64,000 nucleotides of DNA from Pseudomonadota bacterium (GTDB lineage: Bacteria; Pseudomonadota; Gammaproteobacteria; Burkholderiales; Thiobacillaceae): positions 6,004 to 70,003 of the forward strand of contig JAJZSR010000001.1 of NCBI GenBank assembly GCA_021849595.1, read 5' to 3'. The number at the start of each line of letters is the position of its first letter. The stretch's first letter is position 1. Positions 17,009 to 62,534 of the stretch are shown here, one piece after another. Made by a program: the position numbers and the translations under genes. The notes below the pieces were generated by a model that did not search any database, was not told the DNA's origin, and worked only from the letters and a program-made list of their open reading frames with translations.

Positions 17009-17010
17009 GA

Positions 17011-17871: not shown

Positions 17872-17898
17872 GGGTTGGCGGGGGCGGCCCCCCAACCC
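17872..17898 (-). other. GC-rich hairpin between the unknown gene and motD
   Basis: GGGTTGGCGGGGGC/GCCCCCCAACCC imperfect palindrome with no T-tract. It could be an attenuator or a REP-like structure. Confidence 0.35.
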
Positions 17899-17922
17899 AT
17901 TAACGGCAGGCGCGGCCGGGAT

Positions 17923-18489: not shown

Positions 18490-18637
18490 CGCAGGCTCCC
18501 AAAGCTCCAACTCGGCGCGACTTGGGCCGCGCTTCGGCTCCAATAGTATAGGAATTGCGCCGAAGAACTTTCAGCCGGGTTCGCCGGCGCTCAGCCCGTC
18601 CACCTTGCGGGAACCAACCGGCCTGGAGCCAGCGCCG

Positions 18638-22951: not shown

Positions 22952-24457
22952 TCAGCCTGCAACAGGCTTATCGTCACGTCCCCTGAAAACTTTAGCGTGC
23001 ATATTCTGTGGCGACGCTGGGTGTTGATGCGGCTCTTCGCGCAAAGCCTGCAGGCGCCGATGCAACTCCCCGATTTTGGCAACGAGTTCATCGACACGCG
23101 GGGCAGCACCTGCGGGCGCCGGGGCATTTGCCGCGCCCGGGGCGCATAACCGGCCGCAGAACGCCGCAATGGTCTGAGCGGCCTGCGCTTGGCGCGCCAG
23201 CCCCTCGCGCAAGCTGGCCAGGGCTGGCCGCACATCGGCCCGTAGTGCCTCTACCGGCTCCGCGTCGGCCGCAGCCTCCCCAGCCTGCAGCGCTAGGCCG
23301 GCTTGCGCGATGTCGCGCGCCAAATCCATGCCTTCGGCGCACAGGGGGTCGAGCTGTTCGCCCAAAGCGGCGAGCTGGGCGGGTTCGGCTTGGCCCTGCA
23401 GTAGGGCCAGACGCAGATTCAGGCATAGCAGTAGCAGCTGCTCGACTTTTTCCCCCGCTGCTTGCAGAGCCGGGGCCAGGCCATCGGGCTGCGCGTGGCC
23501 GCGCCTGCGCTCGGGCAGCTCCCGCGCCAACGCGTCCTGGATTTCCTGCGCCCGCTCGCTGCCCGAGCGCAAGCCGGCGGCGAGCCCCTGCAGGCCGCGC
23601 AGCAATTTATCGAAATGCTCGGCCCCCGCAAGCTGTGGACCGGTCTGGACCGCGGCGCAGACCTTGGCCAGTTGACCGGCCAGTGTCTCCAACTCTGCCG
23701 CCGCTTGTTCCGCCTGCGCCAGCTTGCCCACGGCGGCTTCCCGCATGTTGGCGCTGCGGCCCTCCAGTTCCTCCAGGTCTGCCGCCAGCGCGCGCAAGCC
23801 GCGCCCGACGGGCAAGGCTGCCACCGACAAACCGGCCGCCATGGCCCGTAACCGATCGCGCAGGGCAGCGTGCTGGCGGCGCCAGCCCCAGGCCAGATAG
23901 GCGGCCGCCAGCCCCAGCAGCGTGACGCTGCCCAGGGCGAACAGCGCCAGGTTGTGCTCCACCATGACGCGCAGTCGGGCGCTGCGCGCGGCCTGCGCCA
24001 GTCCCTGGCGCCCCAGGCGGGCAGCATATCGGCCCAGCGCCTGCTGCAGCCGCGCCAGTTGCGCCGTCGAAGCGGCGGTAAGCACCGCACCGCTGGCGAG
24101 CGGGTGGCTCAACTCCACCAGTGCGGCCAACGCTTGCCGGTCGGCCCCGTCGAAGGGCAGCGCAGCCGCCTGGCCGTAGAGACCCTGCAAGACCCCATCG
24201 GCAAACTGCATGCGGTTGCCGGCGACCGCCGCCGCGCCGTTGGTCCCCGATGCGGCCTGGTTCGCCAGTTGGCGCGCCGCCGCCACCTCGTTCTGCACCA
24301 CTTGCAGTTGCATGGTCATCCGGCCCAGCCGCGCCCGCGCTTCCATGCCCTGCTCGACGCCCCGCAACTGCCAATAGGCCCAGGCCGCCCCGCCAGCCAG
24401 CAAAGCGGCGGCGACCAGGGCCAGAAAGAGTAACGCGTAGCCGGGGGTAAGCTTCAC
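22952..24457 (-). CDS. MCP-like membrane protein: TM1, periplasmic region, TM2 and a long Ala/Leu-rich coiled coil, without a canonical MCP signalling tip
   Basis: 501 aa with TM segments at the N-terminus and around residues 170-195, followed by about 300 aa of heptad-like Ala/Leu/Gln sequence. There is only a weak tip-like stretch (EQLLLLCLNLRLALLQG). Its start overlaps the upstream cheW-like stop. Confidence 0.6.
   Translation of the reverse strand: MKLTPGYALLFLALVAAALLAGGAAWAYWQLRGVEQGMEARARLGRMTMQLQVVQNEVAAARQLANQAASGTNGAAAVAGNRMQFADGVLQGLYGQAAALPFDGADRQALAALVELSHPLASGAVLTAASTAQLARLQQALGRYAARLGRQGLAQAARSARLRVMVEHNLALFALGSVTLLGLAAAYLAWGWRRQHAALRDRLRAMAAGLSVAALPVGRGLRALAADLEELEGRSANMREAAVGKLAQAEQAAAELETLAGQLAKVCAAVQTGPQLAGAEHFDKLLRGLQGLAAGLRSGSERAQEIQDALARELPERRRGHAQPDGLAPALQAAGEKVEQLLLLCLNLRLALLQGQAEPAQLAALGEQLDPLCAEGMDLARDIAQAGLALQAGEAAADAEPVEALRADVRPALASLREGLARQAQAAQTIAAFCGRLCAPGAANAPAPAGAAPRVDELVAKIGELHRRLQALREEPHQHPASPQNMHAKVFRGRDDKPVAG
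22968..22994 (-). promoter_or_regulatory. Sigma28 (FliA) promoter of fliC
   Basis: The minus strand reads TAAAGTTT-N11-GACGATAA against the consensus TAAAGTTT-N11-GCCGATAA (one mismatch), about 70 nt upstream of the fliC ATG. Confidence 0.85.
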
Positions 24458-26111: not shown

Positions 26112-27080
26112 TTATCCCGCCGGCTGCTCGGATTGCGCCGCGGCAGCCGCAAGATAGACCCGGTTGCGCCCCTCCGCCTTGGCCCGATAAAGCGCGCCGT
26201 CGGCGAACTCCAGGGTCTGCGTGGGCGAGGCAGCGGCCGCCAGTTCGGCCACTCCGGCAGAGAAGCTTATGCGCAGCGGTTTGCCTGTAGCCGTAGCGAA
26301 GGCGGCGCGGCCCGCCGCCTCCCGTATGCGGTCGACCAGGCGCTTGGCCACGGGTGCATGGACGCCCGGCAGGCACAACACGAACTCCTCGCCGCCGTAG
26401 CGGAAAACGCCGTCATAAGAGCGCAGATTCGCCCGCAACAGGGCGGCGAAACGTGTCAGCACCTGGTCGCCGCTCAAATGGCCGTGCCGGTCGTTGATTT
26501 CCTTGAAGCGGTCGATGTCCAGCAGTGCCACGGCGCAGGGTCGGCCTTCCCGCTGCATGCGCGACCACTCTTGCTGCAGGCAATCCTCCAGGGCACGCCG
26601 CCCCCCCAGGCCGGTGAGTGGGTCGAGCGCGGCCATGAGCGCTGCGCGCTCCGCCTCCAGGGCGCTGAAAAGCGACAGGATTTCGAGCGCCGCGTCCACC
26701 ACGCGGTTGCGCAAGTCGCCAAACGCCGCGCTTGGCCGGCGCCTTGTGCCCGCGAGGGCGTCCAGCCGCGCCAAATGATAGGCAAGTTCGCCATACAGCG
26801 GACGCGCCTCGATGCCGGCGGCGCCAAACTGGCTGCCAGCCAACTCGGCCTCGATGGCCGCACGCGGAAAATCCAGGCCGCCGGCACCCCACGCCCCGTC
26901 GCCCGCCAGCCGCAGGGTGTTGCGCAGCCAGGATTCGAATGCACTGCGCGCCCGGCGCAAGGCATCCCCGGCCGTGGGCCGCGATGATTCCGCGCGGCGG
27001 GCGCCCAGCCCTTTTTCGGCTTGGGCAAGTCTGGAGTTTTTCGGCCGTTCGGCCAGCGGCAGCGCTATCACCAGGGACAT
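26112..27080 (-). CDS. GGDEF diguanylate cyclase with an uncharacterised N-terminal domain of about 150 aa
   Basis: Intact active site RYGGEEF with an upstream I-site (RSYD), DPLTGLGGRRAL and LLDIDRFKEINDRHGH motifs. The N-terminus contains neither a REC nor a PAS signature. Confidence 0.85.
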   Translation of the reverse strand: MSLVIALPLAERPKNSRLAQAEKGLGARRAESSRPTAGDALRRARSAFESWLRNTLRLAGDGAWGAGGLDFPRAAIEAELAGSQFGAAGIEARPLYGELAYHLARLDALAGTRRRPSAAFGDLRNRVVDAALEILSLFSALEAERAALMAALDPLTGLGGRRALEDCLQQEWSRMQREGRPCAVALLDIDRFKEINDRHGHLSGDQVLTRFAALLRANLRSYDGVFRYGGEEFVLCLPGVHAPVAKRLVDRIREAAGRAAFATATGKPLRISFSAGVAELAAAASPTQTLEFADGALYRAKAEGRNRVYLAAAAAQSEQPAG

Positions 27081-27117
27081 GCCAGTTTCCTCGACAAAAA
27101 GTCACTGGCAAGCCTCT

Positions 27118-27133
27118 AGCAAACCTGATGCCA
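27118..27133 (-). promoter_or_regulatory. Sigma54 (-24/-12) promoter of the GGDEF/CheW-like operon
   Basis: The minus strand reads TGGCATCAGGTTTGCT against TGGCAC-N5-TTGCW, with exact GG-N10-GC spacing, about 40 nt upstream of the ATG at 27080. Confidence 0.7.
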
Positions 27134-27161
27134 ACCAAAAACGCCAATAATGTATTTTATT

Positions 27162-27174
27162 TATCAATAGGTTG
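27162..27174 (+). promoter_or_regulatory. IHF-like site upstream of the sigma54 promoter
   Basis: TATCAATAGGTTG matches WATCAANNNNTTR. It sits in an AT-rich tract about 30 to 55 nt upstream of the -24 element. Confidence 0.45.
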
Positions 27175-27256
27175 TCTGATTTCCTGGCGGCAACCGCGAG
27201 GGGCGGCTTGCCGCCGGCCCGGACGCGTCAATATTTTGGCTGGCGCTAAGGCCTTA

Positions 27257-36144: not shown

Positions 36145-38163
36145 ATGTCCGGCATCAGCGGCCTCATCAACAATGCCTTAAGCGGCCTGCAGGTCAGCCA
36201 GGTGGCGCTGCAAACCACGGGCAACAACATCGCCAACGTCAATACGCCCGGCTACAGCCGGCAGACGGCAGTGCCCACCACCCTGCCGCCCAGCTACATC
36301 GGCGGTCAGTACCTGGGCAACGGCGCGCAAATCCAGACCATCACGCGCGCCTATGACAGCTATCTGCAGAACCAGGTCTGGAGCAGCACGGCGACCACCA
36401 GTGCCTCCAGCGCTCTCAACACCCAGTTGCAGCAGATCTCCAATCTCATCGCCAGCCCGCAGGGGGGACTGACATCGCAACTCAACCAGTTCTTCTCCGG
36501 CGTGGCCCAGGTGGCGGCCAATCCGGCCGACCTGCCCTCGCGCCAGAGCATGATTTCCCAGGCGCAAAGCCTGGCGCAGACCTTCCAGAGCCTAGGCGGA
36601 CAGTTGCAGACGCTGTCCGACGGCGTAAACCAGCAGATCGGCCAGAGCGTCACCAGCATCAACGCGCTGACCCAGCAGATCGCCGACCTCAACCGGCAGA
36701 TCAACGCCCTGGGCGGTGCCGGCAACGGCAACCCAAACGACCTCCTGGATCAGCGCGACCAGCTCATCACCCAGCTCAATGCCCAGGTTGGTGTCTCGGT
36801 GCTGCCGCAGTCCAACGGGCAGGTGAACGTGTTCACCGGCAACGGCCAAGTGCTGGTCGCCGGCACCCAGGCCTATGCCCTGAAAACCGCCCCCGGCACC
36901 TACGACCCCAGCCAACTGGAAGTGGCCTATGCCAGCAATGGCGCCATCATTTCCCAGGGCCTGAGCGGCGGCACGCTGGGCGGCCTGCTGCAGTTTCGCG
37001 CCACCTCGCTGGCGCCGGCGCAGAACGCGCTGGGCCAGATCGCCGACGGCATCGCGGCGGAATTCAACCTGCAGCAATCCAAAGGCATCGACCTCAACGG
37101 CAACTTCGGCCAGCCGCTGTTCCAGGGCGGGCCTGTGCAAGTGCTGGCGAGCCAGTACAACACCGGCAGCGGTACCATCAGCGGCAGTATCACCGACGTC
37201 ACCCAACTGACCACGGCCGACTACAAGCTGCAGAACAACAGCGGCACCTGGTCGGTCACCAACCTGTCCACCGGCCAGGCCTTGTCGGGCAGCGCCTTGA
37301 GCGTGTCCACCTCGGGCGGCGTCACCACCCTCGCCTTCGACGGCGTGCAGGTCAACGTGAGCGGCGCCGCCAGCGGCGACAGCTTCATGGTCGAACCCAC
37401 GCGCCTGGGTGCCTCTGCCTTTCAATCCGTGCTCAGCGATCCGCGCGCCATTGCCGCGGCCGCGCCTTATGCATCCAGCGCGGGCGTGCTGCAGAGCAAC
37501 GGCAGCATCATCAACAATAACCTGGGCAATCTGGTGCTTTCCGCAGGCAGTTGGAGCGCGACCAGCGGCGGCGCTACCCTGGTCAGCGGCGCCACAGTCA
37601 ACACACCCCTCACATCCCTGCAAGTCACGTTGACCAGCGGCGGTAGCAGCGGCCAGAGCGTAGGCTTTCAGATTACCGCGGCCGGCTCCGCCACCGTTCT
37701 GGCGAGCGGCAGCGTGCCGCTGGGCAGCAGCGGCACGACGCTGGCCATACCCTATGCCAACAATCCGCCTGGAGGGTATTGGGAGGCCACCTTGAGCGGC
37801 AGCCTGGCCGCCTCCGGCGATGCCTTCGCCCTCACTGCCGCCGGCCCGGGCAACAATGCCAACGGCCAGGCCTTGAGCGCGCTGCAGACGGGCAAATTTC
37901 TCAACAACGGCACGGCCTCCTTCCAGGACGGCTACGCCCAGTTGGTAAGCCAGGTCGCCACCGCGGCCAACCAATCGCAAACGTCGCTGGCCGCCAACCA
38001 GGCCGTGGCGCAGCAGGCCACGGCCGCGCAGCAATCGGTGTCCGGCGTCAACCTCGACCAGGAAGCGGCCAACCTGGTGCAATACCAGCAGGCCTACCAG
38101 GCCGCGGCCAAGGCCATTTCAGTCGGCGCGAGCCTGTTCCAGTCGCTGCTGCAAGCCTTGTAA
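36145..38163 (+). CDS. flgK: Hook-filament junction protein FlgK
   Basis: 672 aa with N-terminal LINNALSGLQVSQVALQTTGNNIANVNTPGYSRQ and C-terminal VNLDQEAANLVQYQQAYQAAAKAI. Confidence 0.95.
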   Translation: MSGISGLINNALSGLQVSQVALQTTGNNIANVNTPGYSRQTAVPTTLPPSYIGGQYLGNGAQIQTITRAYDSYLQNQVWSSTATTSASSALNTQLQQISNLIASPQGGLTSQLNQFFSGVAQVAANPADLPSRQSMISQAQSLAQTFQSLGGQLQTLSDGVNQQIGQSVTSINALTQQIADLNRQINALGGAGNGNPNDLLDQRDQLITQLNAQVGVSVLPQSNGQVNVFTGNGQVLVAGTQAYALKTAPGTYDPSQLEVAYASNGAIISQGLSGGTLGGLLQFRATSLAPAQNALGQIADGIAAEFNLQQSKGIDLNGNFGQPLFQGGPVQVLASQYNTGSGTISGSITDVTQLTTADYKLQNNSGTWSVTNLSTGQALSGSALSVSTSGGVTTLAFDGVQVNVSGAASGDSFMVEPTRLGASAFQSVLSDPRAIAAAAPYASSAGVLQSNGSIINNNLGNLVLSAGSWSATSGGATLVSGATVNTPLTSLQVTLTSGGSSGQSVGFQITAAGSATVLASGSVPLGSSGTTLAIPYANNPPGGYWEATLSGSLAASGDAFALTAAGPGNNANGQALSALQTGKFLNNGTASFQDGYAQLVSQVATAANQSQTSLAANQAVAQQATAAQQSVSGVNLDQEAANLVQYQQAYQAAAKAISVGASLFQSLLQAL

Positions 38164-38172: not shown

Positions 38173-39441
38173 ATGCGCATCAGCACGCCGCAGTTCTACA
38201 CCGCCAGCCTCGCAGGCATGCTCAACCAGCAAGCCACCATCGGCAATCTGAGCCAGCAGCTTTCCACCGGTAACCGCCTCACCAATCCGGCCGATTATCC
38301 GGTGGATTCCGCCCAGGTGGTCGGCCTTGCCGGCCAGCTCAACCGCCTGGCGAGCTACCAGCAAAACGGCCAAAACGCCCAGAACTCGCTGCAACTGGAA
38401 TCCTCCACGCTGCAAAGCGCCGGCACCCTGCTCAACCAGGTTCGCAGCCTGGCTCTGCAGATGAACAACGCCACCGTAAGCAGCCAGGATCTCAACAACG
38501 CCGCCAGCGCCATGGGCGGCTATCTGCAGCAATTGCTGCAATACGCCAACACCCAGGACGGCCAGGGCAACTATCTGTTCGCCGGCAGCAAGAACCAGAC
38601 CCAGCCCTTCTCCTTGCTGCCCAACGGCCAAGTGCAATATTCCGGCGACGGCGCGCAGAACCAGCTGTCCATCGGTTCTTCACTGCAGACTGCAGTAAGC
38701 GACCCGGGCAATGCGATCTTCATGGACATCCCTGCCGGCAACGGCAGCTTTACCGTCGCGGCTTCCGGCAGCAACTCCGGTGGCGCGGTGGCAGGTCCCG
38801 GCAGCGTCGCCAACACCTCGCTTGCCCAGCAGCTGCTCGTAGTCAACCAGACCGAATACCAGATCAGCTTCAGCGGCAGCACGGCCAGCGGCGGAACGCA
38901 GACCTACACGGTCACCAGCGGCACGGGCAGCGGCATGAGCGCCTCGGGCGTGGTCGCCTCGGGCACCTTCACACCCGGCATGAGCATCAGCATTCCCTCC
39001 AGCGGGGGTACCACCGTACTGAACGTGCCCGTGCAGGGCACCCCTGCCTCGGGCGACACTTTCACCATCGCCGCCGCAGGCCATCAAAGCCTGTTCACGA
39101 TATTCCAGAATCTGCAGCAGGCCTTTTCCATGAGCGCCTCCGCGCCCGGCGCCAACGCCCAGCGCGCCCAGGCCATAGGCAACGCCATCGCCGGACTGGA
39201 TCAGGCGCAGACAACGCTCTTGAACACCCAGGCAGCGATCGGCACGCGCCTGCAACAGGTGCAGGCGGTGCAGAACATGAATTCCAACCTCACCCTGCAA
39301 CTGCAGACCCAGCAGTCGCAGCTCACCGACATCAACTATCCGCAGGTAATCACCGCTTACCAGCAGGGCCTTACCGCCTTGCAGGCATCGGAGGCGGCTT
39401 ATGCTAAGGTGCAGGGGCTGAGCTTATTCAACTATCTCTGA
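38173..39441 (+). CDS. flgL: Hook-filament junction protein FlgL
   Basis: 422 aa with flagellin-like termini (MRISTPQFYTASLAGMLNQQ ... DINYPQVITAYQQGLTALQASEAAYAKVQGLSLFNYL). Confidence 0.93.
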   Translation: MRISTPQFYTASLAGMLNQQATIGNLSQQLSTGNRLTNPADYPVDSAQVVGLAGQLNRLASYQQNGQNAQNSLQLESSTLQSAGTLLNQVRSLALQMNNATVSSQDLNNAASAMGGYLQQLLQYANTQDGQGNYLFAGSKNQTQPFSLLPNGQVQYSGDGAQNQLSIGSSLQTAVSDPGNAIFMDIPAGNGSFTVAASGSNSGGAVAGPGSVANTSLAQQLLVVNQTEYQISFSGSTASGGTQTYTVTSGTGSGMSASGVVASGTFTPGMSISIPSSGGTTVLNVPVQGTPASGDTFTIAAAGHQSLFTIFQNLQQAFSMSASAPGANAQRAQAIGNAIAGLDQAQTTLLNTQAAIGTRLQQVQAVQNMNSNLTLQLQTQQSQLTDINYPQVITAYQQGLTALQASEAAYAKVQGLSLFNYL

Positions 39442-39496
39442 ACCCCCACAGGGTAATACCAGAGATGACCTCCAATCTTTGTGACCAGAAAACAAG

Positions 39497-40783
39497 ATGC
39501 GTCATTCTCGTGAAAAGGAGTGGCTAAAAAATTCCGGCCTCTTCGATGCGGCATGGTATCTCCAACATAACCCTGATGTCGCCGCATCAACGTTCGATCC
39601 ACTCGACCACTGGTGCGATTTCGGACACAAAGAAGGTCGTGACCCAAATGCCGGTTTCTCCGTCAACGAGTACCGCCGCGCGCATCCGGATTGCTTCATC
39701 GGCCAGAATCCTTTGTTCCACGCCGCAAGAGCTCAAGCACATCGTGGTATCGCGGATCACCGTCTGCGTGTGCAAAGCCTACGTGGGCGGCCATTGCCAG
39801 CCGTAAGCCCAAGTGGCGCCCGACTCGTCGCCTCGGAAATTATTGAAGCCGACTCGGTGCGCAGGATCGCAGTCATAAAACTCGACCATATCGGTGATGT
39901 GTATCTTTCCTTGTCGGCGCTTGAGCGATTACAGCAGAAATTCCCTAACGCCGAATTCACTATCTTTTGTGCATCTTTCACCCGTGAAATTTTTGAGAGC
40001 GCTGGATTTGGACATTGTGTAACACTGGATGTCTTCCCTTATGGCGGCGTCGGCCATAATGGGGTCCGCCCGCGTGTCGCGTTACCCGCCAGCCAATTCG
40101 ATCTCGCAATCGATTTCCGGGTCGAACGCGACGCGCGCGAAATTATGTTCGCAGTTGGCGGCTTCTTAACCGTCGCTTACGATCCGATGGCAGACTATCG
40201 CTTGCCATATCCTGGCGCCGACATTCCCCATGAAAAGCAGCTACACCTGCTTGTGGAAAGAATTTCCAGTACCGGGCGCGCGACCGTGCCCGTACCTTTG
40301 TCCCGCCCGCTACGCGTGGTCCTTTGCCCTAGCGGATCGGTACAGGCCAAGCAATGGCCGAAGGCGAATTGGATCGAACTCGCCCGTCTGCTCAGACAGG
40401 CAGGCCATACGCCAATCTTTCTGGGCGCCCCCGCCGATCTCGAAGAGACCCAACGGCTGGCACGTGAGGCCGGCTCTGCACTGCAATCTCCCCTTGCATT
40501 GCAGCACTACCCGACTTGGGTAAGCGAGTCTTCCGACGTTTATGTTGGTTGCGATACCGGCCCCACCCATGCAGTGGCCTTGCAGGGGCATCGGGTCGTC
40601 GAGATTATCGGCGGCTACACCAATGTCGAGGAATGGATTGCGCCCGGGCCCAATGTCCTTGGCCTACATCGGCCCACACCTTGCTCTCCTTGCTTTTCGC
40701 CCCGATACTGCCCTAGCGCTTGGTATTGCCTGTCGATCCCCGCCAGCGACGTGTTTTGGGCTATTGAGCTGCTGTCCACGTAA
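39497..40783 (+). CDS. Glycosyltransferase family 9 (heptosyltransferase-like) with an N-terminal DxxWYLxxNPDV/EGRxPN motif
   Basis: RIAVIKLDHIGDVYLSLSALERL, VVLCPSGSVQAKQWPKANWIELARLL and YVGCDTGPTHAVAL are GT9 hallmarks. The gene sits in a lower-GC stretch directly after flgL. Confidence 0.75.
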   Translation: MRHSREKEWLKNSGLFDAAWYLQHNPDVAASTFDPLDHWCDFGHKEGRDPNAGFSVNEYRRAHPDCFIGQNPLFHAARAQAHRGIADHRLRVQSLRGRPLPAVSPSGARLVASEIIEADSVRRIAVIKLDHIGDVYLSLSALERLQQKFPNAEFTIFCASFTREIFESAGFGHCVTLDVFPYGGVGHNGVRPRVALPASQFDLAIDFRVERDAREIMFAVGGFLTVAYDPMADYRLPYPGADIPHEKQLHLLVERISSTGRATVPVPLSRPLRVVLCPSGSVQAKQWPKANWIELARLLRQAGHTPIFLGAPADLEETQRLAREAGSALQSPLALQHYPTWVSESSDVYVGCDTGPTHAVALQGHRVVEIIGGYTNVEEWIAPGPNVLGLHRPTPCSPCFSPRYCPSAWYCLSIPASDVFWAIELLST

Positions 40784-40799
40784 GCCAAACGTCAAAATC

Positions 40800-43700
40800 A
40801 TGAACGCTAATGCCGCTAATCCCTCCTCGGTGTCGCAATGGACTATTTGCACCCCCACGCGCTCCGGGAATCTGCGTGTTTTTAGAAACGATATCGGTGC
40901 TGCTACTCGCTCATTATTGGAATACGGCGAGTGGGCTTGGAACGAGATTACCTTTATGTTCCAGTTCGCCGATCAAGGCTCGACCATAATCGATGTTGGC
41001 GCCTACGTCGGAACCCACACTTTGGCTTTTGCCGGCCATGTCGGGCCAAGCGGCCATGTGTATTCGATAGAAGCCCAGCCCGCCTCCGTAAGTGTTCTGA
41101 AGCACAACGTTGCAGAAAGCGGGTTTGCGCACGTCGATGTAATCCATGCCGCCGCATCAGCCTCGCCTGGAATCATTCAACTTAGCGCAATCGACATTAC
41201 CGCGGCGCACAGTTTTGGCAGCGCAGCAATCGAGGAGCAACGATATATCGAAACTGGCCAGGTAGATGGAGCGATCATCCAGGTCCCAGCGATCACCCTC
41301 GATAGCCTGCGGCTCGCCGGTGCGCCAGCGCTTATCAAGATCGATGTCGAAGGGATGGAAAGCACGGTGCTTCAGGGAGCAAGAGAGCTCTTGTTTAAGT
41401 ACCGACCAGTGATCTATGCCGAATGTAATTCCATAGACGCCGGCGCGCAGACGCTCAATCGCCTGCACGAGTTCGGTTATGCGGCGTTTGCTCATGTCGT
41501 CGATGCCTTCAATCCCGACAATTGGAGAAAGGCCACACACAATATGTTCGGTGCCGCCCGTGAGGTAGCCATCGTCGGTATCCCTCTTGAGCGCCGAGCC
41601 AACGCTCTGCAGATTACGCAACGCCCTGTTGAGGATTTCTTCGAACTGCGCTCTCTCGACGATTTGTGCGGCGCCCTGCTGCTTAAGCCACAATATCCGT
41701 CCGAGGTGCTCCAGCACACTACCGCCGCAGCTAGTTCACGTTTTCAGCAACTACTGGGACGACTGACTCTCGGCCCGACAGCCCCCAAGGCTGATCCGCC
41801 GGTAGAGTTGAGGATACTGCACGGAGGCCGCATCACTGGCGCAGAAGTTGCTGTCTTGCTGCATTTGCACTACCCGGATCTCTGGCAAGAATTTGCAGAG
41901 CTTATCCGCCAAATTGAGACTGAATGCGATCTCTATATTTCGCTGACCGACAACAGCATACAAGTGCTGCCGGCAATAATCGAGGTCTTTCCGCACGCAT
42001 ACGTTGTTCTGGCGGGAAACCGTGGTCGAGACATTGCGCCACGACTCGCCCTCCTGCGTCAGATACGACGGCATTCATATGAACGCATTCTCTTTCTCCA
42101 TGGAAAAAAATCTCCCCATTTAAGGAATATCGAGCGTATCGACATCCCCTTTCTTCAACACCGCGATGGCGATCGCTGGCGCCGAGAACTGCTTCAGGGA
42201 CTTACTACAGATATGCCCCGTGTCGTCGAGGTATTTAAACGTAATCCCAAGCTCGGATTGCTGGGACCGCAAGGATTCTGGCTGAGCCTGAATCGCGACT
42301 CCAATCTCTCCCGGGTTGCTGCGCTCGGCAACCGAATGGGCGTTGCAGTGGATCCTAACCGTCATGGCTACTTCGGCGGTTCCATGTTTTGGTGTCGCCC
42401 GCAGGCGCTCGACCCATTGCTTGCGCTCGGCCTTGGCACGACGGATTTTGAGAACGAATCCGGCCAAACCGACGGTACGCTGGCCCACGCGGTGGAACGA
42501 CTGTTCACTCTCAGTACGGAAAAAGCAGGATTGCAGGTGGCAGACACCGCCGGCAACACTCTTGGCGAACCGCCACACCCCCTTCTTCCCTGGCTCCCCG
42601 AACACCGTTGGTCCCTGGCAGAAAAATCCTGGGCGGAAGAAGTGCTGGCCAAGTGGCCGCAGCCGCCGCGCTTCCGCATCGCCATCGTCCCATCGTCGCA
42701 GAGCCTGCCGCCGCAACCCACTCTCACCAGCGTCCAGGGCCAATGGCTGGCCTGCGAAACCAGGGAAATCGAAGCCGCCCAAGGGGGCGATCTGCTCGGC
42801 AATATCAACAGTGCTCTGCTGGCATCCACCACAGATTGGGTTGCCATAATGGACGCCGGCGACCAGCTCGCCCCCGACGCCCTTTTCCGAGTAGCCCTGG
42901 CGATCAAACAGCATCCCGAATGGCAAGTCATCTACACGGACGAGGACAGCCTCACCGCCGACGGCCAGCATGTCAATCCGCACTGCAAACCCGATTTCAA
43001 TCCGGACTATTTGAGAAGCTTGCCCTACACGGGCGGGCTGCTGCTCATCCGGCGCGATCTGTTCGCGGATTTGGGTGGCTTCGACCCAGAGTGCGAGGGT
43101 GCCGAGGATTACGACCTGGTGCTGCGCGCCTGGGAGCAGGCGGGCGATGCCGCCATCGGCCATGTGCCCGAGGTGCTGTATCACCGCCTGCAGGGTTCCG
43201 GCCACAGCTGTAAATCGGTACCAGAAATCCTTGCTGCCGGCCAGGCGACGCTGGAAGCACATCTGCGTCGCTGCAACATCGATGCGGAAGTTCAGCCCGG
43301 CCCCTTCCCGCCCTCGTTCCGCGTGCGCTATCGCACTGTTCAGCAGCCGCTGGTATCCATCCTCATTCCCACGCGCGACCAACTGCCCATGCTGCAGCGC
43401 TGCGTGGAATCGATCATCGAGAAGACGAAATATCCGGCCTACGAAATCCTCGTCATCGACAATGACAGCCAAAGCGAGGAGGCGCGCAACTATCTCGCCG
43501 CGATAGAAAGCAAGGAAGCCGAACTCGGCGGCCGCCTGCGCGTGATTCGCCAGCCCGGCCCGTTCAATTTCTCCGCCATGAACAATACCGCGGCGCGCGC
43601 GGCGCGGGGCGAGTTTCTGCTGCTGCTCAACAACGACACTGCTGCATTGCACGACGACTGGCTGGACGAGATGATGTCCCACGCCTTGCGCCCGGAGGTG

Positions 43701-45209
43701 GGCATCGTCGGCGCCAAGCTGCTTTATCCGGACGGACGCATCCAGCATGCGGGCGTCATCCTGGGCATGAAAGGCCCGGCCGAACATCCCTTCATCACGC
43801 GCCCGCCGGAGGATCGCGGCTATTTCGGGCGCCTGCAGCTCACGCAGAATTATTCAGCGGTAACGGGCGCCTGCCTGCTAATCCGCAAATCGCTGTATGA
43901 GGAAGTCGGCGGACTGGACGAGCAGGCCTTCGCGGTTTCCTACAACGACATCGACTTGTGCCTGAAAGTCGGCGCGACGGGAAAACACATCGTCTGGACG
44001 CCTTATACCATCCTCATGCACGAAGGGTCCGCCAGCCAGAAGGGACAGGTGGAGGCCAAGCCGGACGAAGCCAAGCTCAAGCGCTTCGCCGCCGAGAAGG
44101 ATGCCATGTACACGCGCTGGCTCCCCAAGATGGCCTACGACCCTGCTTATAACCGCCATCTGAGCCTCGCTACCACCGACTTCCTGCTCGACGACCAGGC
44201 AGCGCTGGCCTGGGATCCGGACTGGCGCCCGCGCCCACGCATCCTCGTGCACGCCGCCGACCGCGAAGGCTGCGGCGAGTACCGCATCATCGCGCCCATG
44301 CGCGCCCTCAATCGCGCCGGGCACACTCAGGGCTGGGAATCCATGCGCATCTTCGAGCCGGCGGAAATGGAGCGCATGAACCCGGACAGCCTGGTGGTGC
44401 AGCGCCAGATGGAATGGCCGCAGATCGAGGCGCTGGAACGCCACAAGAAATACAGCAAGGCCTTTCGCGTGTTCGAGATCGACGACCTCATCACCAACCT
44501 GCCGCTCAAGAGCACGCACCGCTCCGGCATCCACAAGGACATTTACAAGCGCTTCCGCCGCTCGGCCGGACTGTGCCAGCGCCTGGTGGTGGCCACCCAG
44601 CCGCTGGCGCAAGCCTACCGCGACCTGAGCGACGAGGTCGTCGTGGTGCCCAATTACCTCGAAACGCACCGCTGGGGCAGCCTGACCCCACAGCGCCGTG
44701 AGGGCGCCAAACCGCGCGTGGGCTGGGCAGGCGGCATCGGCCATCAGGGCGATCTGGAAATGATTGCAGACGTGGTGCGCGATCTGGCGGAAGAAGTCGA
44801 TTGGGTGTTTTTCGGCATGTGCCCGGATGCCCTGCGGCCTTATATCAAAGAGTTCTATCCCGGCGTGCCGCTCGATCAATATGCGCCAAAACTCGCCAGT
44901 CTCGACTTGGATCTGGCCGTCGCGCCGCTGGAGGACAACCCTTTCAACGAGGCCAAAAGCCACCTGCGCCTGCTGGAGTACGGCATCCTGGGCTACCCGG
45001 TGGTGTGCTCCGACTTGGCGCCCTATCAAGGCGATTTCCCCGTCTGGCGCGTTCCCAACAAATATGCCGCCTGGATGAAGGCCATTCGCGAAGCGCTCAG
45101 CGACCGAGAGGCGCTGGCGGCACGTGGGGACGAACTGCGCCAACACATCCGCCGGCATTGGATGCTGGAAGACCATCTGGATGTCTGGCTCAAGGCCTGG
45201 CTGCACTGA
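40800..45209 (+). CDS. 1469-aa multidomain fusion: FkbM methyltransferase, RgpF-like (rhamnan synthesis F) domain, degenerate GT2, GT2 and a GT1/GT4-like C-terminal domain
   Basis: FkbM domain at about 40932-41444 (IIDVGAYVGTHT...LIKIDVEGMES). RgpF-like domain at about 41832-42524 (AVLLHLHYPDLW...GNRGRDIAP...GGSMFWCRPQAL). Degenerate GT2 at about 42672-43199 (WVAIMDAGDQL...IYTDED). GT2 at about 43353-44024 (VSILIPTRD...ILVIDNDS...LNNDT...GACLLIRK). GT-B-like C-terminal domain at about 44238-45206. I chose the start at MNANAANP (40800). The upstream part of the ORF track entry overlaps the GT9 gene. Confidence 0.8.
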   Translation: MNANAANPSSVSQWTICTPTRSGNLRVFRNDIGAATRSLLEYGEWAWNEITFMFQFADQGSTIIDVGAYVGTHTLAFAGHVGPSGHVYSIEAQPASVSVLKHNVAESGFAHVDVIHAAASASPGIIQLSAIDITAAHSFGSAAIEEQRYIETGQVDGAIIQVPAITLDSLRLAGAPALIKIDVEGMESTVLQGARELLFKYRPVIYAECNSIDAGAQTLNRLHEFGYAAFAHVVDAFNPDNWRKATHNMFGAAREVAIVGIPLERRANALQITQRPVEDFFELRSLDDLCGALLLKPQYPSEVLQHTTAAASSRFQQLLGRLTLGPTAPKADPPVELRILHGGRITGAEVAVLLHLHYPDLWQEFAELIRQIETECDLYISLTDNSIQVLPAIIEVFPHAYVVLAGNRGRDIAPRLALLRQIRRHSYERILFLHGKKSPHLRNIERIDIPFLQHRDGDRWRRELLQGLTTDMPRVVEVFKRNPKLGLLGPQGFWLSLNRDSNLSRVAALGNRMGVAVDPNRHGYFGGSMFWCRPQALDPLLALGLGTTDFENESGQTDGTLAHAVERLFTLSTEKAGLQVADTAGNTLGEPPHPLLPWLPEHRWSLAEKSWAEEVLAKWPQPPRFRIAIVPSSQSLPPQPTLTSVQGQWLACETREIEAAQGGDLLGNINSALLASTTDWVAIMDAGDQLAPDALFRVALAIKQHPEWQVIYTDEDSLTADGQHVNPHCKPDFNPDYLRSLPYTGGLLLIRRDLFADLGGFDPECEGAEDYDLVLRAWEQAGDAAIGHVPEVLYHRLQGSGHSCKSVPEILAAGQATLEAHLRRCNIDAEVQPGPFPPSFRVRYRTVQQPLVSILIPTRDQLPMLQRCVESIIEKTKYPAYEILVIDNDSQSEEARNYLAAIESKEAELGGRLRVIRQPGPFNFSAMNNTAARAARGEFLLLLNNDTAALHDDWLDEMMSHALRPEVGIVGAKLLYPDGRIQHAGVILGMKGPAEHPFITRPPEDRGYFGRLQLTQNYSAVTGACLLIRKSLYEEVGGLDEQAFAVSYNDIDLCLKVGATGKHIVWTPYTILMHEGSASQKGQVEAKPDEAKLKRFAAEKDAMYTRWLPKMAYDPAYNRHLSLATTDFLLDDQAALAWDPDWRPRPRILVHAADREGCGEYRIIAPMRALNRAGHTQGWESMRIFEPAEMERMNPDSLVVQRQMEWPQIEALERHKKYSKAFRVFEIDDLITNLPLKSTHRSGIHKDIYKRFRRSAGLCQRLVVATQPLAQAYRDLSDEVVVVPNYLETHRWGSLTPQRREGAKPRVGWAGGIGHQGDLEMIADVVRDLAEEVDWVFFGMCPDALRPYIKEFYPGVPLDQYAPKLASLDLDLAVAPLEDNPFNEAKSHLRLLEYGILGYPVVCSDLAPYQGDFPVWRVPNKYAAWMKAIREALSDREALAARGDELRQHIRRHWMLEDHLDVWLKAWLH

Positions 45210-45277: not shown

Positions 45278-46558
45278 ATGCAGCCCACCCAACCCGCCGA
45301 CCCCACCCAAAACCCCGAAACGACCGAGAGCGCCTCCGGCCAGTCGGTCTACATCGCCCGCCAGCCCATCCTGGACCGCAAACAAAACATTTTCGGCTAT
45401 GAATTGCTGGCGCGTGCCGATGCCACCAGCCAGTCGGCCCCCGCCAGGCATACGATCGAGTCGGATACCGCATTTCTCTTCAATGCCCTGTCGAACTTCG
45501 CCACCGAGCAGTTGTTCGGCGACAAGCTGGCCTTCGTCAACTGCATACTGGAAGACCTCAGCGGCGAACATCTGGAAATCGTGTTTCCCGAGCGCATCGC
45601 CCTGGAAGTGCCGCGCGTGCCCGAGGACGACCCGGCCGCCATCGGCGCCGTCGCCGAGAAGCTGGCGTGCCTGCGCGGGCGCGGCTTCCGCATTGCCGCA
45701 GGGGCTTTCGTCGCCACCGGGCCGTATGCGCCCTGGCTGCCGCACGTCAGTTTCGTCAAATTCGACGTTCAGTCCGGCAATCCGGCCCTGGCCCAGTTTC
45801 TCGCAAAAAAAGCGCAGCGCCAGTTTCAGTTGGTCGCCGAAAAAGTGGAAATGCCCGACCAGTTCAAAACCCACTTCGATCTGGGTTTCGATTATTTCCA
45901 GGGCTATTACTTTGCCAAGCCCCAGACCGTGACCGCCAAGGTGGTCAACCCGGCCTTCTCCAACGTTCTGCAGCTCATCAACCTGGTCGCCAAGGAGGCC
46001 GAGCTGCGCGAAATCGACGAGGTCATCAAGCGCGATCCGGCGCTGTCGTTCAAGCTTTTGCGCTACATCAATTCGTCCGGCTTCGGCCTCATGTCGGAAG
46101 TGACTTCCTTCCGCCATGCCGTCACTCTGCTGGGTTATCGCAAGCTTTTCCGCTGGCTCACGCTGCTGCTCGCCACCATCGACAAATCCGGCATGCCACC
46201 TGCGGTGTTCCGCACGGCGGTGACCCGGGGGCGCATGATGGAACTGCTGGCCGGCAATCTCATGTCGCCGGAGGAATGCGACAACGCCTTCGTGACCGGG
46301 GTGTTCTCCCTGCTAGACACCATGCTGGGGGTCCCCATGGATAAAGCGCTCGCCAGCATCACGCTGCCGGAGGCCGTGGGCGATGCGCTGCTGCACCACC
46401 AGGGTACCTACGGGCCCTTCCTGAAGATCGTCGAGGCCTGCGAAAAAGGGGCATTCGCCGACATCGAACTGGAGGCGATGCTGTTGAATCTGGATGCGGC
46501 CAAAGTGTCTTCCGCCCATCTCCAGGCGCTGGCCTGGACCGAAAGCTTCGGCCTCTGA
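45278..46558 (+). CDS. Degenerate EAL domain + HDOD domain signalling protein
   Basis: N-terminal YIARQPILDRKQNIFGYELLAR (ELL in place of EAL), with DDFG replaced by AGAF and FQGYYFAKP retained. C-terminal HDOD domain (DPALSFKLLRYINSSGFGL...AVTLLGYRKL). Confidence 0.8.
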   Translation: MQPTQPADPTQNPETTESASGQSVYIARQPILDRKQNIFGYELLARADATSQSAPARHTIESDTAFLFNALSNFATEQLFGDKLAFVNCILEDLSGEHLEIVFPERIALEVPRVPEDDPAAIGAVAEKLACLRGRGFRIAAGAFVATGPYAPWLPHVSFVKFDVQSGNPALAQFLAKKAQRQFQLVAEKVEMPDQFKTHFDLGFDYFQGYYFAKPQTVTAKVVNPAFSNVLQLINLVAKEAELREIDEVIKRDPALSFKLLRYINSSGFGLMSEVTSFRHAVTLLGYRKLFRWLTLLLATIDKSGMPPAVFRTAVTRGRMMELLAGNLMSPEECDNAFVTGVFSLLDTMLGVPMDKALASITLPEAVGDALLHHQGTYGPFLKIVEACEKGAFADIELEAMLLNLDAAKVSSAHLQALAWTESFGL

Positions 46559-55255: not shown

Positions 55256-56457
55256 CCCATCACCTCGGAAAAAGGGATATATCTGAGCCAGTCGCCGCGC
55301 TCCACGGACGTGCCGGCGGGCAAATCGACCAAGCCGTCCGCCCAGACCACCGAGGTCAGCACACCGGAGCCTTGATTGGGGAAAAGCCGCACCTCGCCTT
55401 GGCCGTCACTGCCGGGCACCAAAAGGGCACGCAGGAACTCGCGCCGCGAGCCGGTCCGCGGCCAGGCGTGCGCCGCGCGCACGGGAAACGCACGGTACAG
55501 CACCCGCGACGCTCCCATGCGTTTGAGCAGGAAAGGCCGCGCGAACAGGCAGAAAGTGGCAAGAGCGGACACCGGATTGCCCGGCAGGCCCAGAAAGTCC
55601 GCGGCACCGATGGCACCATAGGCGACGGGTTTGCCAGGCTTCATGGCCACCTTCCACAAATCCAAGTGGCCAAGACTTTGCACCGCGGCCTTGACATGAT
55701 CCTCCTCGCCCACCGACACCCCGCCGGTACTGAGGATCACGTCGGCCTCGGCAGCCGCTTTTTCCAGGGCTGCCCGGGTGCCCGCCGGATCATCGGCCAG
55801 AATGCCGAGATCCCGCACTTCCACCGGCAGGCCGGCGAGCAGGGCCTTGAGCGAGACGCGGTTGGAATTGTAGATCTGGCCGGGCGCGAGCGGCCGGCCC
55901 GGCTCGACAAGCTCGTCGCCCGTGCTCAACAGCGCCACCCGCAACGGCCTCGCCACCTCGACCTCGGCGGCGCCGGCGGCCGCGGCCAGGCCCAGTTCGG
56001 CGGCCCCCAGCCGCGTGCCGGGCGCCAGAATTTCTTCCCGGGCCCGCATGTCCTCGCCCGCGCAGCGTATGTGCTGGCCCGGCCTGGGAACGGATCGCAA
56101 CAGCACGCCGCCGGCCGCGGCTTCCGTGTCCTCCTGCATGACCACGGCATCGGCCCCCGGCGGGATGGGCGCTCCGGTGAAAATGCGCGCCGCCGTGCCC
56201 GCCGGCAAAGGCTGGCCGACCTGCCCGGCGGCGATGCGCTGCACGATCTTGAGGATCACTCCGGGCGCCGCGCAATCCGCCATACGCACGGCATAACCGT
56301 CCATGGCCGAATTATCCAGGGGTGGCACGGCCACCCGGCTCACTACGCCCCGAGCCACAATCCTGCCCCGCGCCTGTTCCAAGGGGATTGTTTCGCTGTC
56401 GGCGAGCGGACGTGCCCGCGCAAGCAATTCCTGCAATAGATCAGCAGCGGTCAGCAA
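55252..56457 (-). CDS. moeA: Molybdopterin molybdenumtransferase MoeA
   Basis: 401 aa (VPPLDNSAMDGYAV...ILSTGDELV...STGGVSVGEEDH...GLPGNPVSA). Confidence 0.92.
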   Translation of the reverse strand: MLTAADLLQELLARARPLADSETIPLEQARGRIVARGVVSRVAVPPLDNSAMDGYAVRMADCAAPGVILKIVQRIAAGQVGQPLPAGTAARIFTGAPIPPGADAVVMQEDTEAAAGGVLLRSVPRPGQHIRCAGEDMRAREEILAPGTRLGAAELGLAAAAGAAEVEVARPLRVALLSTGDELVEPGRPLAPGQIYNSNRVSLKALLAGLPVEVRDLGILADDPAGTRAALEKAAAEADVILSTGGVSVGEEDHVKAAVQSLGHLDLWKVAMKPGKPVAYGAIGAADFLGLPGNPVSALATFCLFARPFLLKRMGASRVLYRAFPVRAAHAWPRTGSRREFLRALLVPGSDGQGEVRLFPNQGSGVLTSVVWADGLVDLPAGTSVERGDWLRYIPFSEVMG

Positions 56458-56954
56458 GGTATCTCCTTTGAATTTTCAATAATATAAACAGCAAGTTGTT
56501 CTACATCATTAATGTCAAATCTAGTAAAAGCTTCCGGCGGCGTCACGTCCGAGGCCACCGCAAGAATATGGCAATCTTGCGGGTAGAGCCACCCCTTTTC
56601 CAGGGCGGCGCGATGCACTTCCAGCTTGGGAATGGGTTCGCGCTTGTAGCCTTCCACCAGCACCAAGTCGCAAGGCGCCAGGCGCCCCAATATCTGATCC
56701 AGGCCGGGCGGCGCTTCGCCACTTCGGATCTCGTGCAGCAAAGCCCAGCGCCGTCCGCCGCTCAGCAGTACTTCGTGTGCGCCGGCCTCGCGCTGGCGCC
56801 AGGAATCCTTGCCGGGCCGGTCCAGTTCGAAGTCGTGATGCGTGTGCTTGATCACCGAAACGATCAGGCCGCGCGAGCGCAGTACCGGCAACAGCCGCTC
56901 GATGAGCGTGGTCTTACCGCTGCCGCTATAACCCGCAATGCCGAAAACCTTCAT
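56451..56954 (-). CDS. mobB: Molybdopterin-guanine dinucleotide biosynthesis adapter MobB
   Basis: Starts MKVFGIAGYSGSGKTTLIERLLP (P-loop). I chose the start at 56954, so the AT-rich operator region is not coding. Confidence 0.88.
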   Translation of the reverse strand: MKVFGIAGYSGSGKTTLIERLLPVLRSRGLIVSVIKHTHHDFELDRPGKDSWRQREAGAHEVLLSGGRRWALLHEIRSGEAPPGLDQILGRLAPCDLVLVEGYKREPIPKLEVHRAALEKGWLYPQDCHILAVASDVTPPEAFTRFDINDVEQLAVYIIENSKEIPC

Positions 56955-61787: not shown

Positions 61788-61793
61788 TCCGCC

Positions 61794-61950
61794 ATTTATT
61801 GATCCGAAACTTATGAATCCGAAAAAACAGCCGTCGCCAATAAAACCGGATTGGCGGGAAAGCCGCGCCCAGTTTCGGATCAATAACAATTGAACCTCGG
61901 CGGGTTATTGAAGGGAAATTCAAGTTCTTGAATTTCCCTTCAATAACTAC
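61794..61950 (+). repeat. AT-rich double-hairpin intergenic repeat, copy B (between the multicopper oxidase and cytochrome c genes)
   Basis: Perfect inverted repeats TTATTGATCCGAAAC (61796-61810) / GTTTCGGATCAATAA (61872-61886) and GTTATTGAAGGGAAATTCAAG (61904-61924) / CTTGAATTTCCCTTCAATAAC (61927-61947). The linker block CAATAACAATTGAACCTCGGCGGGTTATTGA is shared with copy A. Confidence 0.8.
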
Positions 61951-61961
61951 GGAGAACTTCC

Positions 61962-62534
61962 ATGAGGAAATGTTTTCTTGCCCTGATCGCCCTGTTTCTT
62001 GCGCTGCTTGCGGGCAGTGCGGCGTTCGTCTATTCCGGCGTCTACAACGTGGCGGCCGACGACCCTCACTGGCGTCCCGTCTTCTGGCTCATGCAGGAAA
62101 CGCGGGCTCGCTCCATCGCTGTGCGCAGCGCGGATGTGACGCCACCCCCGCTCGACGATCCCAAGTTGGTCCTCAAAGGGGCCGGCCAATATGCCGCCAT
62201 GTGCGTGTCGTGCCATCTGGCACCGGGCCGGACCAGCTCGGAGTTGCGCCAAGGGCTCTATCCTTTGCCGCCCGATCTCACGGTCGAAAAAGTCGATCCG
62301 CGCCGCGCCTTCTGGGTCATCAAGCATGGCGTCAAGATGAGCGCCATGCCGGCCTGGGGTGCGACCCATGACGACGCCACGATCTGGAGCATGGTGGCCT
62401 TCCTGCAGACCTTGCCCAAACTCAGCCCGGAGCAATACCGGGACATGGTGAGCCAGGCGCCGCCTGATGAGGACATGGACATGGCGCCGACACCCGGGAA
62501 GCCGCCGCACCATGTTCATAGTCACCCGCACTGA
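61962..62534 (+). CDS. Membrane-anchored c-type cytochrome
   Basis: N-terminal TM segment, a single haem site CVSCH and a distal Met region (KHGVKMSAMPAWG). Confidence 0.8.
   Translation: MRKCFLALIALFLALLAGSAAFVYSGVYNVAADDPHWRPVFWLMQETRARSIAVRSADVTPPPLDDPKLVLKGAGQYAAMCVSCHLAPGRTSSELRQGLYPLPPDLTVEKVDPRRAFWVIKHGVKMSAMPAWGATHDDATIWSMVAFLQTLPKLSPEQYRDMVSQAPPDEDMDMAPTPGKPPHHVHSHPH

Follow-up and report, generated by a model that had tools for sequence, protein, structure and literature searches.

A candidate flagellin glycosylation island downstream of flgL, built from a conserved core and a replaceable cassette

Directly downstream of the flagellar gene flgL, in a 64-kb window of contig JAJZSR010000001.1 from a Thiobacillaceae bacterium (the window being the whole stretch of DNA analysed, a flagellar/chemotaxis region of 64.7% guanine-cytosine (GC) content), two genes encode a GT9-like glycosyltransferase (GT) and a giant protein of 1469 amino acids (aa) in which a methyltransferase is fused to several GT domains. 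This locus is probably a flagellin glycosylation island, whose soluble cytoplasmic enzymes would add a short, probably methylated and strain-variable oligosaccharide to flagellin. A preliminary description, made from the sequence of the window, had already proposed such an island after flgL; relatives of the giant protein found between flgL and fliC in many lineages and the predicted solubility of both proteins strongly support this. The present analysis goes beyond that description in that only the 5' half of the island is foreign, that the junction lies inside the giant gene, and that the 3' part of this gene encodes a widespread, flagellum-linked core. The coordinates and open reading frames (ORFs) given earlier, a GT9-like gene followed by an intact 1469-aa ORF, are right, and the layout is as follows (domain names GT2a, GT2b and GT-B are used throughout).

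39442-42587: replaceable low-GC cassette, made up of 55 intergenic nucleotides (nt), the GT9 gene and the first 596 codons of the giant gene, which cover FkbM + RgpF
39497-40783, plus strand: GT9-like glycosyltransferase, 428 aa (PF01075, 50.4 bits)
40800-45209, plus strand: giant methyltransferase/glycosyltransferase fusion, 1469 aa, a continuous ORF
40800-41759, plus strand: FkbM-type S-adenosylmethionine (SAM) methyltransferase module, aa 1-320 (Pfam core 62-227)
41838-42518, plus strand: RgpF-like domain, aa 347-573, GT-A-type fold
42777-43334, plus strand: GT2a, N-terminally truncated atypical GT2, aa 660-845, start of the conserved core
43335-44081, plus strand: GT2b, intact GT2, aa 846-1094
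44082-45206, plus strand: predicted C-terminal GT-B (GT4-like), aa 1095-1469
36145-38163, plus strand: flgK (curated models)
38173-39441, plus strand: flgL, hook-filament junction protein (TIGR02550, 272 bits), left conserved island boundary
45278-46558, plus strand: EAL-HDOD protein (Pfam EAL + HDOD), right conserved neighbour
21423-22898, minus strand: fliC flagellin, 491 aa (flagellin N- and C-terminal regions in the translation)

The conserved core and its flagellar setting

The 810-aa core of the giant protein, GT2a-GT2b-GT-B (aa 660-1469), has homologues at 577 or more species-level loci of a one-genome-per-species collection; the context counts given here refer to the best 80 of these, which share 48-92% identity across the whole core. 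Carriers include Thiomonas, Acidithiobacillus, Ferrovum, Thiobacillus, Stellaceae, Pseudomonas, Rhodanobacter, Dyella, Chitiniphilus and others. Comparative genomics of the flgL-downstream locus, put forward in the preliminary description as a check, agrees with its proposal: flagellar genes lie in the fetched flank at 61 of the 80 loci, on both sides in 36, the neighbours being flgK-flgL and/or fliC-flaG-fliD, while about 7 of the 19 loci that have none are on contigs too short to judge. The order flgK-flgL-(accessory genes)-giant gene-fliC-flaG-fliD-fliS is found in L003, L005 and L007, and fliC adjoins the giant gene at the orthologous loci L003, L007, L013, L014, L017 and others; Thiomonas-type genomes, the window among them, have flgK-flgL followed by the giant gene and EAL/HDOD, with fliC elsewhere. 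The flgL-fliC position is kept across Beta-, Gamma- and Alphaproteobacteria and Acidithiobacillia, and in most other lineages fliC directly follows the core gene. At least seven Pseudomonas species have the core gene at the very end of a variable 5-9 kb flgL-fliC island that also holds deoxysugar synthesis, DegT, Hexapep, C-methyltransferase and stand-alone FkbM genes, an arrangement like that published for the islands of P. aeruginosa PAK and P. syringae (PMC3927599); over about 800 aa, the core of the window shares 50-54% identity with the gene directly preceding fliC in L068, L070, L073, L075, L079, L081 and L087, all uncharacterised Pseudomonas species. Core-only proteins of about 970 aa lie directly between flgL and fliC in L053 and L055, and the Acidithiobacillus homologues show about 73-76% identity. 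Judged from these alignments and neighbourhoods, the 3' core is a conserved and widespread enzyme with a link to flagella.

The closest core homologues (L008-L087) come largely from acidophilic or acid-tolerant organisms: Thiomonas, Acidithiobacillus, Ferrovum, Rhodanobacter aciditrophus, Dyella acidisoli and acidic-soil Stellaceae. Exchange of genes within acid-mine communities may explain this bias, or the glycan may help to keep the filament stable at low pH.

The replaceable cassette and the domains of the two proteins

The part that precedes the core has a different composition and a different history. On a scale of 1-3 kb, GC within the window is lowest at 39.25-42.5 kb, where it averages about 55% and is typically 52-59%; 42-49% is reached only by some 100-bp spots of the cassette. 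The GC drop noted in the preliminary description, with stretches near 40-50%, is real, and it is limited to this interval. GC at third codon positions (GC3) is 0.58 in GT9, 0.60 in FkbM and 0.56 in RgpF (about 0.57 for the cassette), and 0.74, 0.80 and 0.82 in GT2a, GT2b and GT-B, which makes the 3' 2.7 kb of the giant gene near-native beside flgK/flgL at 0.83-0.87 and flanks overall at 0.79-0.87 (about 0.83). Homology to L008, the closest species-level relative (88.6% nt identity in flgL, 84% in the core), stops in blastn alignments at 39441, the flgL stop codon, and resumes at 42588, around codon 596 of the giant gene; what replaces the intervening part in L008 is a class-I methyltransferase and a GT9 domain, fused to the same core. 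The low-GC stretch coincides with this replaceable cassette, 39442-42587, whose right junction falls inside the giant gene.

A second relative, L088, carries the cassette type of the window; its flank proteins are 91-92% identical, the cassette proteins only 75-80%, and synonymous divergence (dS) amounts to 1.4-1.8 for the cassette but 0.56-0.73 for the flanks. The ratio of nonsynonymous to synonymous divergence (dN/dS) is 0.09-0.12 in the cassette and 0.06-0.12 throughout, a mark of purifying selection, and the raised dS with low dN/dS therefore indicates a functional cassette with a separate, deeper history. Positive selection was rejected as the source of the cassette divergence, since dS is raised too and dN/dS stays near 0.1. 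The GT9 + FkbM part is about 74% nt-identical to an Acidithiobacillus-like metagenome-assembled genome (MAG; L003, L018) and the RgpF part is nearer the Thiomonas type, so that the giant gene is itself a mosaic with seams along domain boundaries. Altogether, three close relatives (L008 and L088 among them) have different or strongly diverged cassettes. Composition and alignments point to a foreign origin of the 5' half only, and to a cassette that is horizontally acquired and swappable. No repeats or tRNA genes beyond chance were found at the cassette edges, for which reason exchange by a mobile element or integrase was dropped; homologous recombination in flgL and in the conserved core would be the simplest mechanism of exchange.

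Some observations on composition and mobile DNA stand beside these. In an Acidithiobacillus MAG (L017, 7859-10000) the variable FkbM + GT4 part has 40% GC and GC3 0.33 between flanks of 51-53% GC, a compositional contrast even stronger than in the window, and in L022 the variable part is GC-richer than its flanks. Sharp low-GC spots of the window, 34-45% in 100-200 bp windows and below any in the cassette, lie at 56426-56575, 61751-62000 and 27076-27175. In the metagenomic relative L005, an IS200/IS605 element (Y1 transposase + OrfB/TnpB) occupies 16625-18338, between a 2060-aa giant glycosyltransferase and fliC.

Across the family, the part preceding the core measures 166-1250 aa and is combinatorial, with FkbM, class-I methyltransferases, RgpF, GT2, GT4, GT9 and sometimes DegT/Hexapep genes shuffled between lineages:

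L009: MT23 + RgpF
L014: GT2
L017: FkbM + GT4
L019, L073: GT2 + GT2
L021: GT2 + RgpF
L008, L022: MT11 + GT9
L045: MT24
L005: FkbM + GT4 + GT2...
L001: DegT + Hexapep genes, then an N-terminal extension MT11-GT2-RgpF
L007: DegT + Hexapep genes, then an N-terminal extension GT2-RgpF; no methyltransferase match on record

The GT9 + FkbM + RgpF variant is rare, being limited to the window, L088, L003/L018 and the contig of P0004/P0204. Full-length relatives of the GT9 protein form four clusters only, three of them directly after flgL and the fourth (P0205) on a contig too short to judge. As L008 and L022 have a GT9 domain and the core joined in one protein, the separate GT9 protein of the window is taken to act in the same pathway as the core.

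The five-domain architecture attributed earlier to the giant ORF was recovered in full, FkbM, RgpF and two GT2 domains by Pfam/NCBIfam models and the GT-B domain by AlphaFold and Foldseek. The FkbM match spans aa 62-227 (PF05050, E=7.5e-17; TIGR01444, E=3e-26), and the edge of the module falls at about aa 310-320 in blastp alignments with unrelated FkbM fusions. The RgpF match (aa 347-573; PF05045, E=1.3e-30) covers only model positions 269-498; the AlphaFold2 model of the segment has a predicted local distance difference test score (pLDDT) of 82, above 90 across the domain itself, and its Foldseek matches are GT-A enzymes at E of about 1e-4, a distant GT-A fold, with the motifs NRGRD, HxKKSPH, DGDRWR and GQxDGTLAHAxER kept within the family. 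GT2a had been called degenerate, and it is indeed N-terminally truncated, Pfam GT2 models covering only positions 63-167 of 168 (the C-terminal two thirds), with the canonical DxD reduced to xGD; however, its motifs xGD, YxDED and KPDFNxDxLRSxPY do not vary within the family and are the most conserved patterns chosen by the locus scan, and this family-wide conservation marks the domain as atypical or truncated rather than decaying. GT2b is a regular GT2 (aa 850-1080; PF00535, E=4.6e-28; PF13641, E=3e-24). The C-terminal 375 aa (1095-1469) have no significant Pfam match, PF13692 being weak only; their AlphaFold2 model (pLDDT 85, predicted template modelling score 0.86) resembles GT4-type GT-B enzymes in Foldseek (ManT 7qsg, GlgM 6tvp, PglA, MshA and BshA; E about 1e-11, TM-score about 0.6), so the domain is predicted to be a GT4-like GT-B. 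A sequence search of the giant protein against PDB returned only a marginal GT2 match, to chondroitin synthase.

No transmembrane segment was found in either protein, the highest 19-residue Kyte-Doolittle mean of 1.65 lying in a Rossmann-type strand, and both are predicted to be soluble. The GT9 protein passes the family-level Pfam GT9 model only and scores far below the equivalog models of the lipopolysaccharide (LPS) heptosyltransferases WaaC/WaaF/WaaQ: 47.5 for TIGR02193 (cutoff 185), 28.6 for TIGR02195 (134.6) and 18 for NF008204 (437). Its N-terminal extension of about 110 aa (39497-39830) carries an 'NPDV' repeat motif of about 60 aa, WYLxxNPDV...DPLxHWxxxGxxEGRxPN, which has no Pfam model and is matched at 40-60% identity by more than 100 otherwise unrelated proteins (RTX/serralysin-like, GT2, GT4 and RgpF proteins).

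The start of the giant gene at ATG 40800 is supported by the full-length homologues P0003 and P0004, which align from residue 1, and also by a close relative in which the giant gene begins 17 nt past the GT9 stop codon. An in-frame ATG at 40542 was dropped as the start: it would overlap the GT9 gene by 242 nt, and the homologues align from ATG 40800. The public gene call for the same contig (L004; ENA ERZ27237442, k141_758240) shortens the giant gene to 998 aa (42213-45209, start at codon 472) and places three small minus-strand ORFs in its low-GC 5' part (40914-42074); these were rejected as spurious, as the plus frame has strong FkbM and RgpF matches, full-length homologues and a dN/dS of about 0.1. 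The mis-splitting is attributed to the foreign composition of this part, and such fusions may consequently be under-counted in metagenomes.

Proposed pathway and competing explanations

The pathway that we infer, in its flagellin acceptor, donor sugars, order of steps and glycan size, is a cytoplasmic, sequential O-glycosylation of flagellin before export. It is suggested by the flagellar synteny, the predicted solubility of the enzymes, the absence from the locus of genes for a lipid carrier, flippase, transporter or oligosaccharyltransferase, the tight spacing to flgL with no terminator-like site, and the Ser+Thr-rich flagellin. The GT9 and giant genes would probably be transcribed by read-through from flgK-flgL, and their products would attach O-linked sugars to Ser/Thr residues of the exposed central flagellin domain, ahead of flagellar type III export; the central region encoded by fliC is 29% Ser+Thr, in line with the Ser/Thr-rich flagellin of the preliminary description. 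The core (aa 660-1469) would most likely recognise flagellin and lay down the proximal sugar or sugars, and the cassette (GT9-like, FkbM and RgpF-like, probably rhamnosyl) would extend and decorate the glycan. Since the cassette holds no sugar-nucleotide synthesis genes, the donors would be drawn from housekeeping pools of nucleotide sugars and SAM, with dTDP-rhamnose plausibly used by the RgpF-like domain and ADP-heptose by the GT9-like enzyme, both of them guesses from family names. The glycan is likely to contain several sugars, given as many as five glycosyltransferase domains, and the product would be an O-methylated hetero-oligosaccharide that is short, with at most about five or six residues; both methylated and multi-residue glycans are documented on flagellin (PMC3927599, PMC11833859, PMC3958885). 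Replacement of the cassette by homologous recombination between flgL and the core would then alter the glycan, hence the filament surface, between strains.

The gene complement fits a pathway of this kind. Neither an initiating phosphoglycosyltransferase nor an ATP-binding cassette (ABC) exporter was found between flgL and EAL-HDOD or in the public gene calls around the locus, and both are likewise absent at L001, L003 and L007; no flippase, oligosaccharyltransferase, polymerase or ligase gene stands beside the island, whose neighbours are flgL and EAL-HDOD, and no Maf-type transferase or pse/leg genes turned up, whether within the island itself or among the ORFs scanned around fliC. As for transcription, the gaps measure 55 nt from flgL to GT9 and 16 nt from GT9 to the giant gene, with no plus-strand terminator-like site in either; the short gaps and the absence of such sites are the sole basis for proposing co-regulation with flgKL, a scan for sigma70-type promoters and terminators having given counts not above those of shuffled sequences. 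A sigma28/FliA-type motif, TAAA-N15-GACGATAA, lies at 22994 on the minus strand, about 96 nt upstream of fliC, which is followed by flaG + fliD and by fliS.

Several points weigh against flagellin glycosylation by this island. The fliC gene is not adjacent but 17 kb away, on the opposite strand, and the sigma28 scan found no comparable motif before flgK or the GT genes, so that we can only infer co-expression of the latter with the late flagellar genes. About 11 well-flanked core loci have no flgK, flgL, fliC or fliD within up to 10 kb; the loci with no flagellar neighbours are L027, L030, L031, L033 (Ferrovum-like), L037, L038, L046, L069 (Thiobacillus), L042, L060 and L062, their core homologues are 51-66% identical, and some have a DegT gene upstream. 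The core family may thus not be exclusively flagellar, or the flagellar genes may lie farther off. The likeness to the Pseudomonas flagellin glycosyltransferases OrfN, Fgt1 and VioT is one of layout and description, sequence homology being to GTs of uncharacterised Pseudomonas species; a search with the P. pseudonitroreducens core homologue returned Pseudomonas matches named only 'glycosyltransferase', and no named flagellin glycosyltransferase. Membership in the RgpF and GT9 Pfam families does not fix specificity, which leaves the donor sugars a guess, and for the clade as a whole the case for flagellin glycosylation is drawn from sequence and not from the biochemistry of any of its members.

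Among competing explanations, the first concerns the product. The preliminary description had modelled it on O-antigen and rhamnan synthases, as a methyl-capped polymer, and this part of its proposal did not hold up, there being no ABC transporter, no initiating phosphoglycosyltransferase and no WbdD-type ruler/terminator module. In explicit form, the giant enzyme would be polymerase and terminator at once, alternating GTs building a rhamnan-like polymer on flagellin while the FkbM methyl cap sets the chain length, as in WbdA/WbdD or WsaE; we think this unlikely. WbdA/WbdD and Geobacillus WsaE are ABC-transporter-dependent O-antigen or rhamnan-type synthases with terminal modification. The systems of this kind (RgpB/RgpF, WbdA/WbdD, WsaE) do resemble the island in having an RgpF-family domain and in combining multiple GTs with a methyltransferase in one system, here even in a single polypeptide; they use undecaprenyl-linked acceptors, however, and need an initiating transferase and an exporter, neither of which is at this locus, and the proteins here are predicted soluble. 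RgpF elongates polyrhamnose (PMC9574508), a methyltransferase module of some family recurs in most cassette variants, and repetitive flagellin glycans are known, with n = 3-4 repeats in A. brasilense and up to 11 residues in strain PAK (PMC11833859, PMC3958885). On the other hand, the giant protein has no ruler and no coiled-coil/kinase terminator module, long polymers have no known precedent in passing the narrow flagellar export channel, several relatives have no methyltransferase at all (L014, L019, L021), and five distinct GT domains fit a defined oligosaccharide equally well; the characterised methyltransferases of flagellin systems, moreover, modify a sugar or precursor and are not chain terminators (VioM, PMC3927599; PA1088, PMC11833859). 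Polymerisation or chain-length capping is therefore unsupported, nothing specific in the sequence pointing to it, though the 3-4-unit glycan of Azospirillum is a precedent.

A more elaborate version, in our estimate likewise improbable, would have the giant protein and the GT9 enzyme form a self-contained, lipid-independent assembly line that polymerises a rhamnose-rich repeat on cytoplasmic flagellin until an FkbM methyl cap ends the chain, with in-gene cassette exchange acting as a flagellar serotype switch; if true, this would be serotype switching analogous to that of O-antigens, at the level of protein domains.

The acceptor could also differ, the enzymes glycosylating FlgK, FlgL, FliD or the hook instead of or besides flagellin, an idea to which we give little credence. 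The genes of the window and of Thiomonas are physically, and probably transcriptionally, tied to flgK-flgL and not to fliC, and synteny alone cannot name the acceptor; against this, the core gene of most other lineages directly precedes fliC, and all characterised islands in this slot modify flagellin (PMC3927599, PMC4622738, PMC11833859). Very improbable, lastly, is an envelope polysaccharide module (LPS core/O-antigen or exopolysaccharide) brought beside flgL by chance of horizontal transfer and unrelated to flagella: GT9, RgpF, GT2, GT4 and FkbM are typical of LPS/polysaccharide loci, relatives bear database names such as 'O-antigen biosynthesis protein' and 'rhamnan synthesis F family protein', a GT2-GT2-GT9 fusion (P0048) belongs to a non-flagellar cluster rich in GTs, flagellar genes are missing around some core homologues and the composition is foreign, but the flgL-fliC position is conserved across Beta-, Gamma- and Alphaproteobacteria and Acidithiobacillia, the proteins have no membrane segments, genes for an initiating transferase, a flippase, an ABC transporter, a polymerase or a ligase are absent from the locus, and the GT9 protein is far below the WaaC/WaaF/WaaQ equivalog cutoffs.

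Related systems and neighbouring genes

Judged by analogy, the general kind of locus to which a flagellin glycosylation island behind flgL would belong is already known from the islands of Pseudomonas and Acidovorax in the same slot; new here are the cassette boundary inside a gene, the domain-level shuffling of the N-terminus, and free-living carriers of acidic environments. The Pseudomonas islands comprise orfA-orfN of the a-type P. aeruginosa strain PAK and, in P. syringae, fgt1/fgt2 with the viosamine island vioA/B/M/R/S/T (PMC3927599), where VioT is a protein of 1,173 aa about 40% identical to OrfN (PMC3927599); their flagellin glycans are built on rhamnose and may be methylated (PMC3927599, PMC3958885). 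Like these, the present island starts after flgL, is strain-polymorphic and is built around a very large GT, here predicted soluble, with accessory functions at its side (aminotransferase, acetyltransferase and methyltransferase in Pseudomonas). It differs in that the methyltransferase and an extra RgpF-type transferase are fused to the core, a GT9-like enzyme is present, sugar-nucleotide synthesis genes are absent from the island, and fliC is separated from it. In b-type PAO1, FgtA (PA1091) combines a GT2 with a phosphotransferase adding N,N-dimethylthreonine-phosphate, with PA1088 as partner methyltransferase (PMC11833859); this flagellin glycosyltransferase, encoded between flgL and fliC, resembles the giant protein in being multi-domain and containing a GT2, and differs from it in its phosphotransferase domain.

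Closer in taxonomy is the island of Acidovorax avenae K1, also of the Burkholderiales, which encodes Fgt, Fmt, Fcs and Fst and in which deletion of Fgt yields unglycosylated flagellin (PMC4622738). It lies inside the flagellar operon, with a glycosyltransferase, a methyltransferase and a sugar transaminase, and the T. intermedia variant of our locus (DegT + Hexapep + methyltransferase-fused giant gene) is similar to it in functional content; compared by description, the A. avenae functions are in separate genes, whereas in our locus the GT itself includes the methyltransferase as a domain, and no transaminase is encoded in the cassette. In Acidithiobacillus caldus, 'gta' between flgL and fliC was proposed from annotation to be associated with flagellin glycosylation (PMC6543871). 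It occupies the same slot, and the flagellar genes of its lineage are closely similar to the Thiomonas ones; unlike in the window, the N-terminal modules of Acidithiobacillus vary by species (GT2, GT2+RgpF, FkbM+GT4, MT11+GT9).

If confirmed, flagellin glycosylation would extend to the Thiomonas/Acidithiobacillus community of acidic mine waters, where host immunity cannot be the selective force and the likelier drivers are phage pressure, predation or the need for stable filaments at low pH. The family would illustrate a route to glycan diversity in which a conserved, acceptor-directed core stays while methyltransferase and GT modules are recombined onto its N-terminus, and it offers a natural test set for asking which domain recognises flagellin and which ones set the glycan structure.

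The EAL-HDOD gene to the right of the island is outside the glycosylation function and holds the same place in other Thiomonas-type genomes (L001, L008, L009, L011, L028). It is one of three cyclic-di-GMP-related genes inside the flagellar region, with a GGDEF gene at 26112-27080 (minus strand) and an atypical PilZ (tPilZ) gene at 17923-18543 (minus strand); the EAL-HDOD gene sits right after the island, at 45278-46558 (plus strand), and the tPilZ gene follows fliS. Directly upstream of fliC, a 501-aa ORF with no Pfam match (22952-24457, minus strand) may be either an uncharacterised gene or one of the spurious long ORFs that GC-rich genomes produce.

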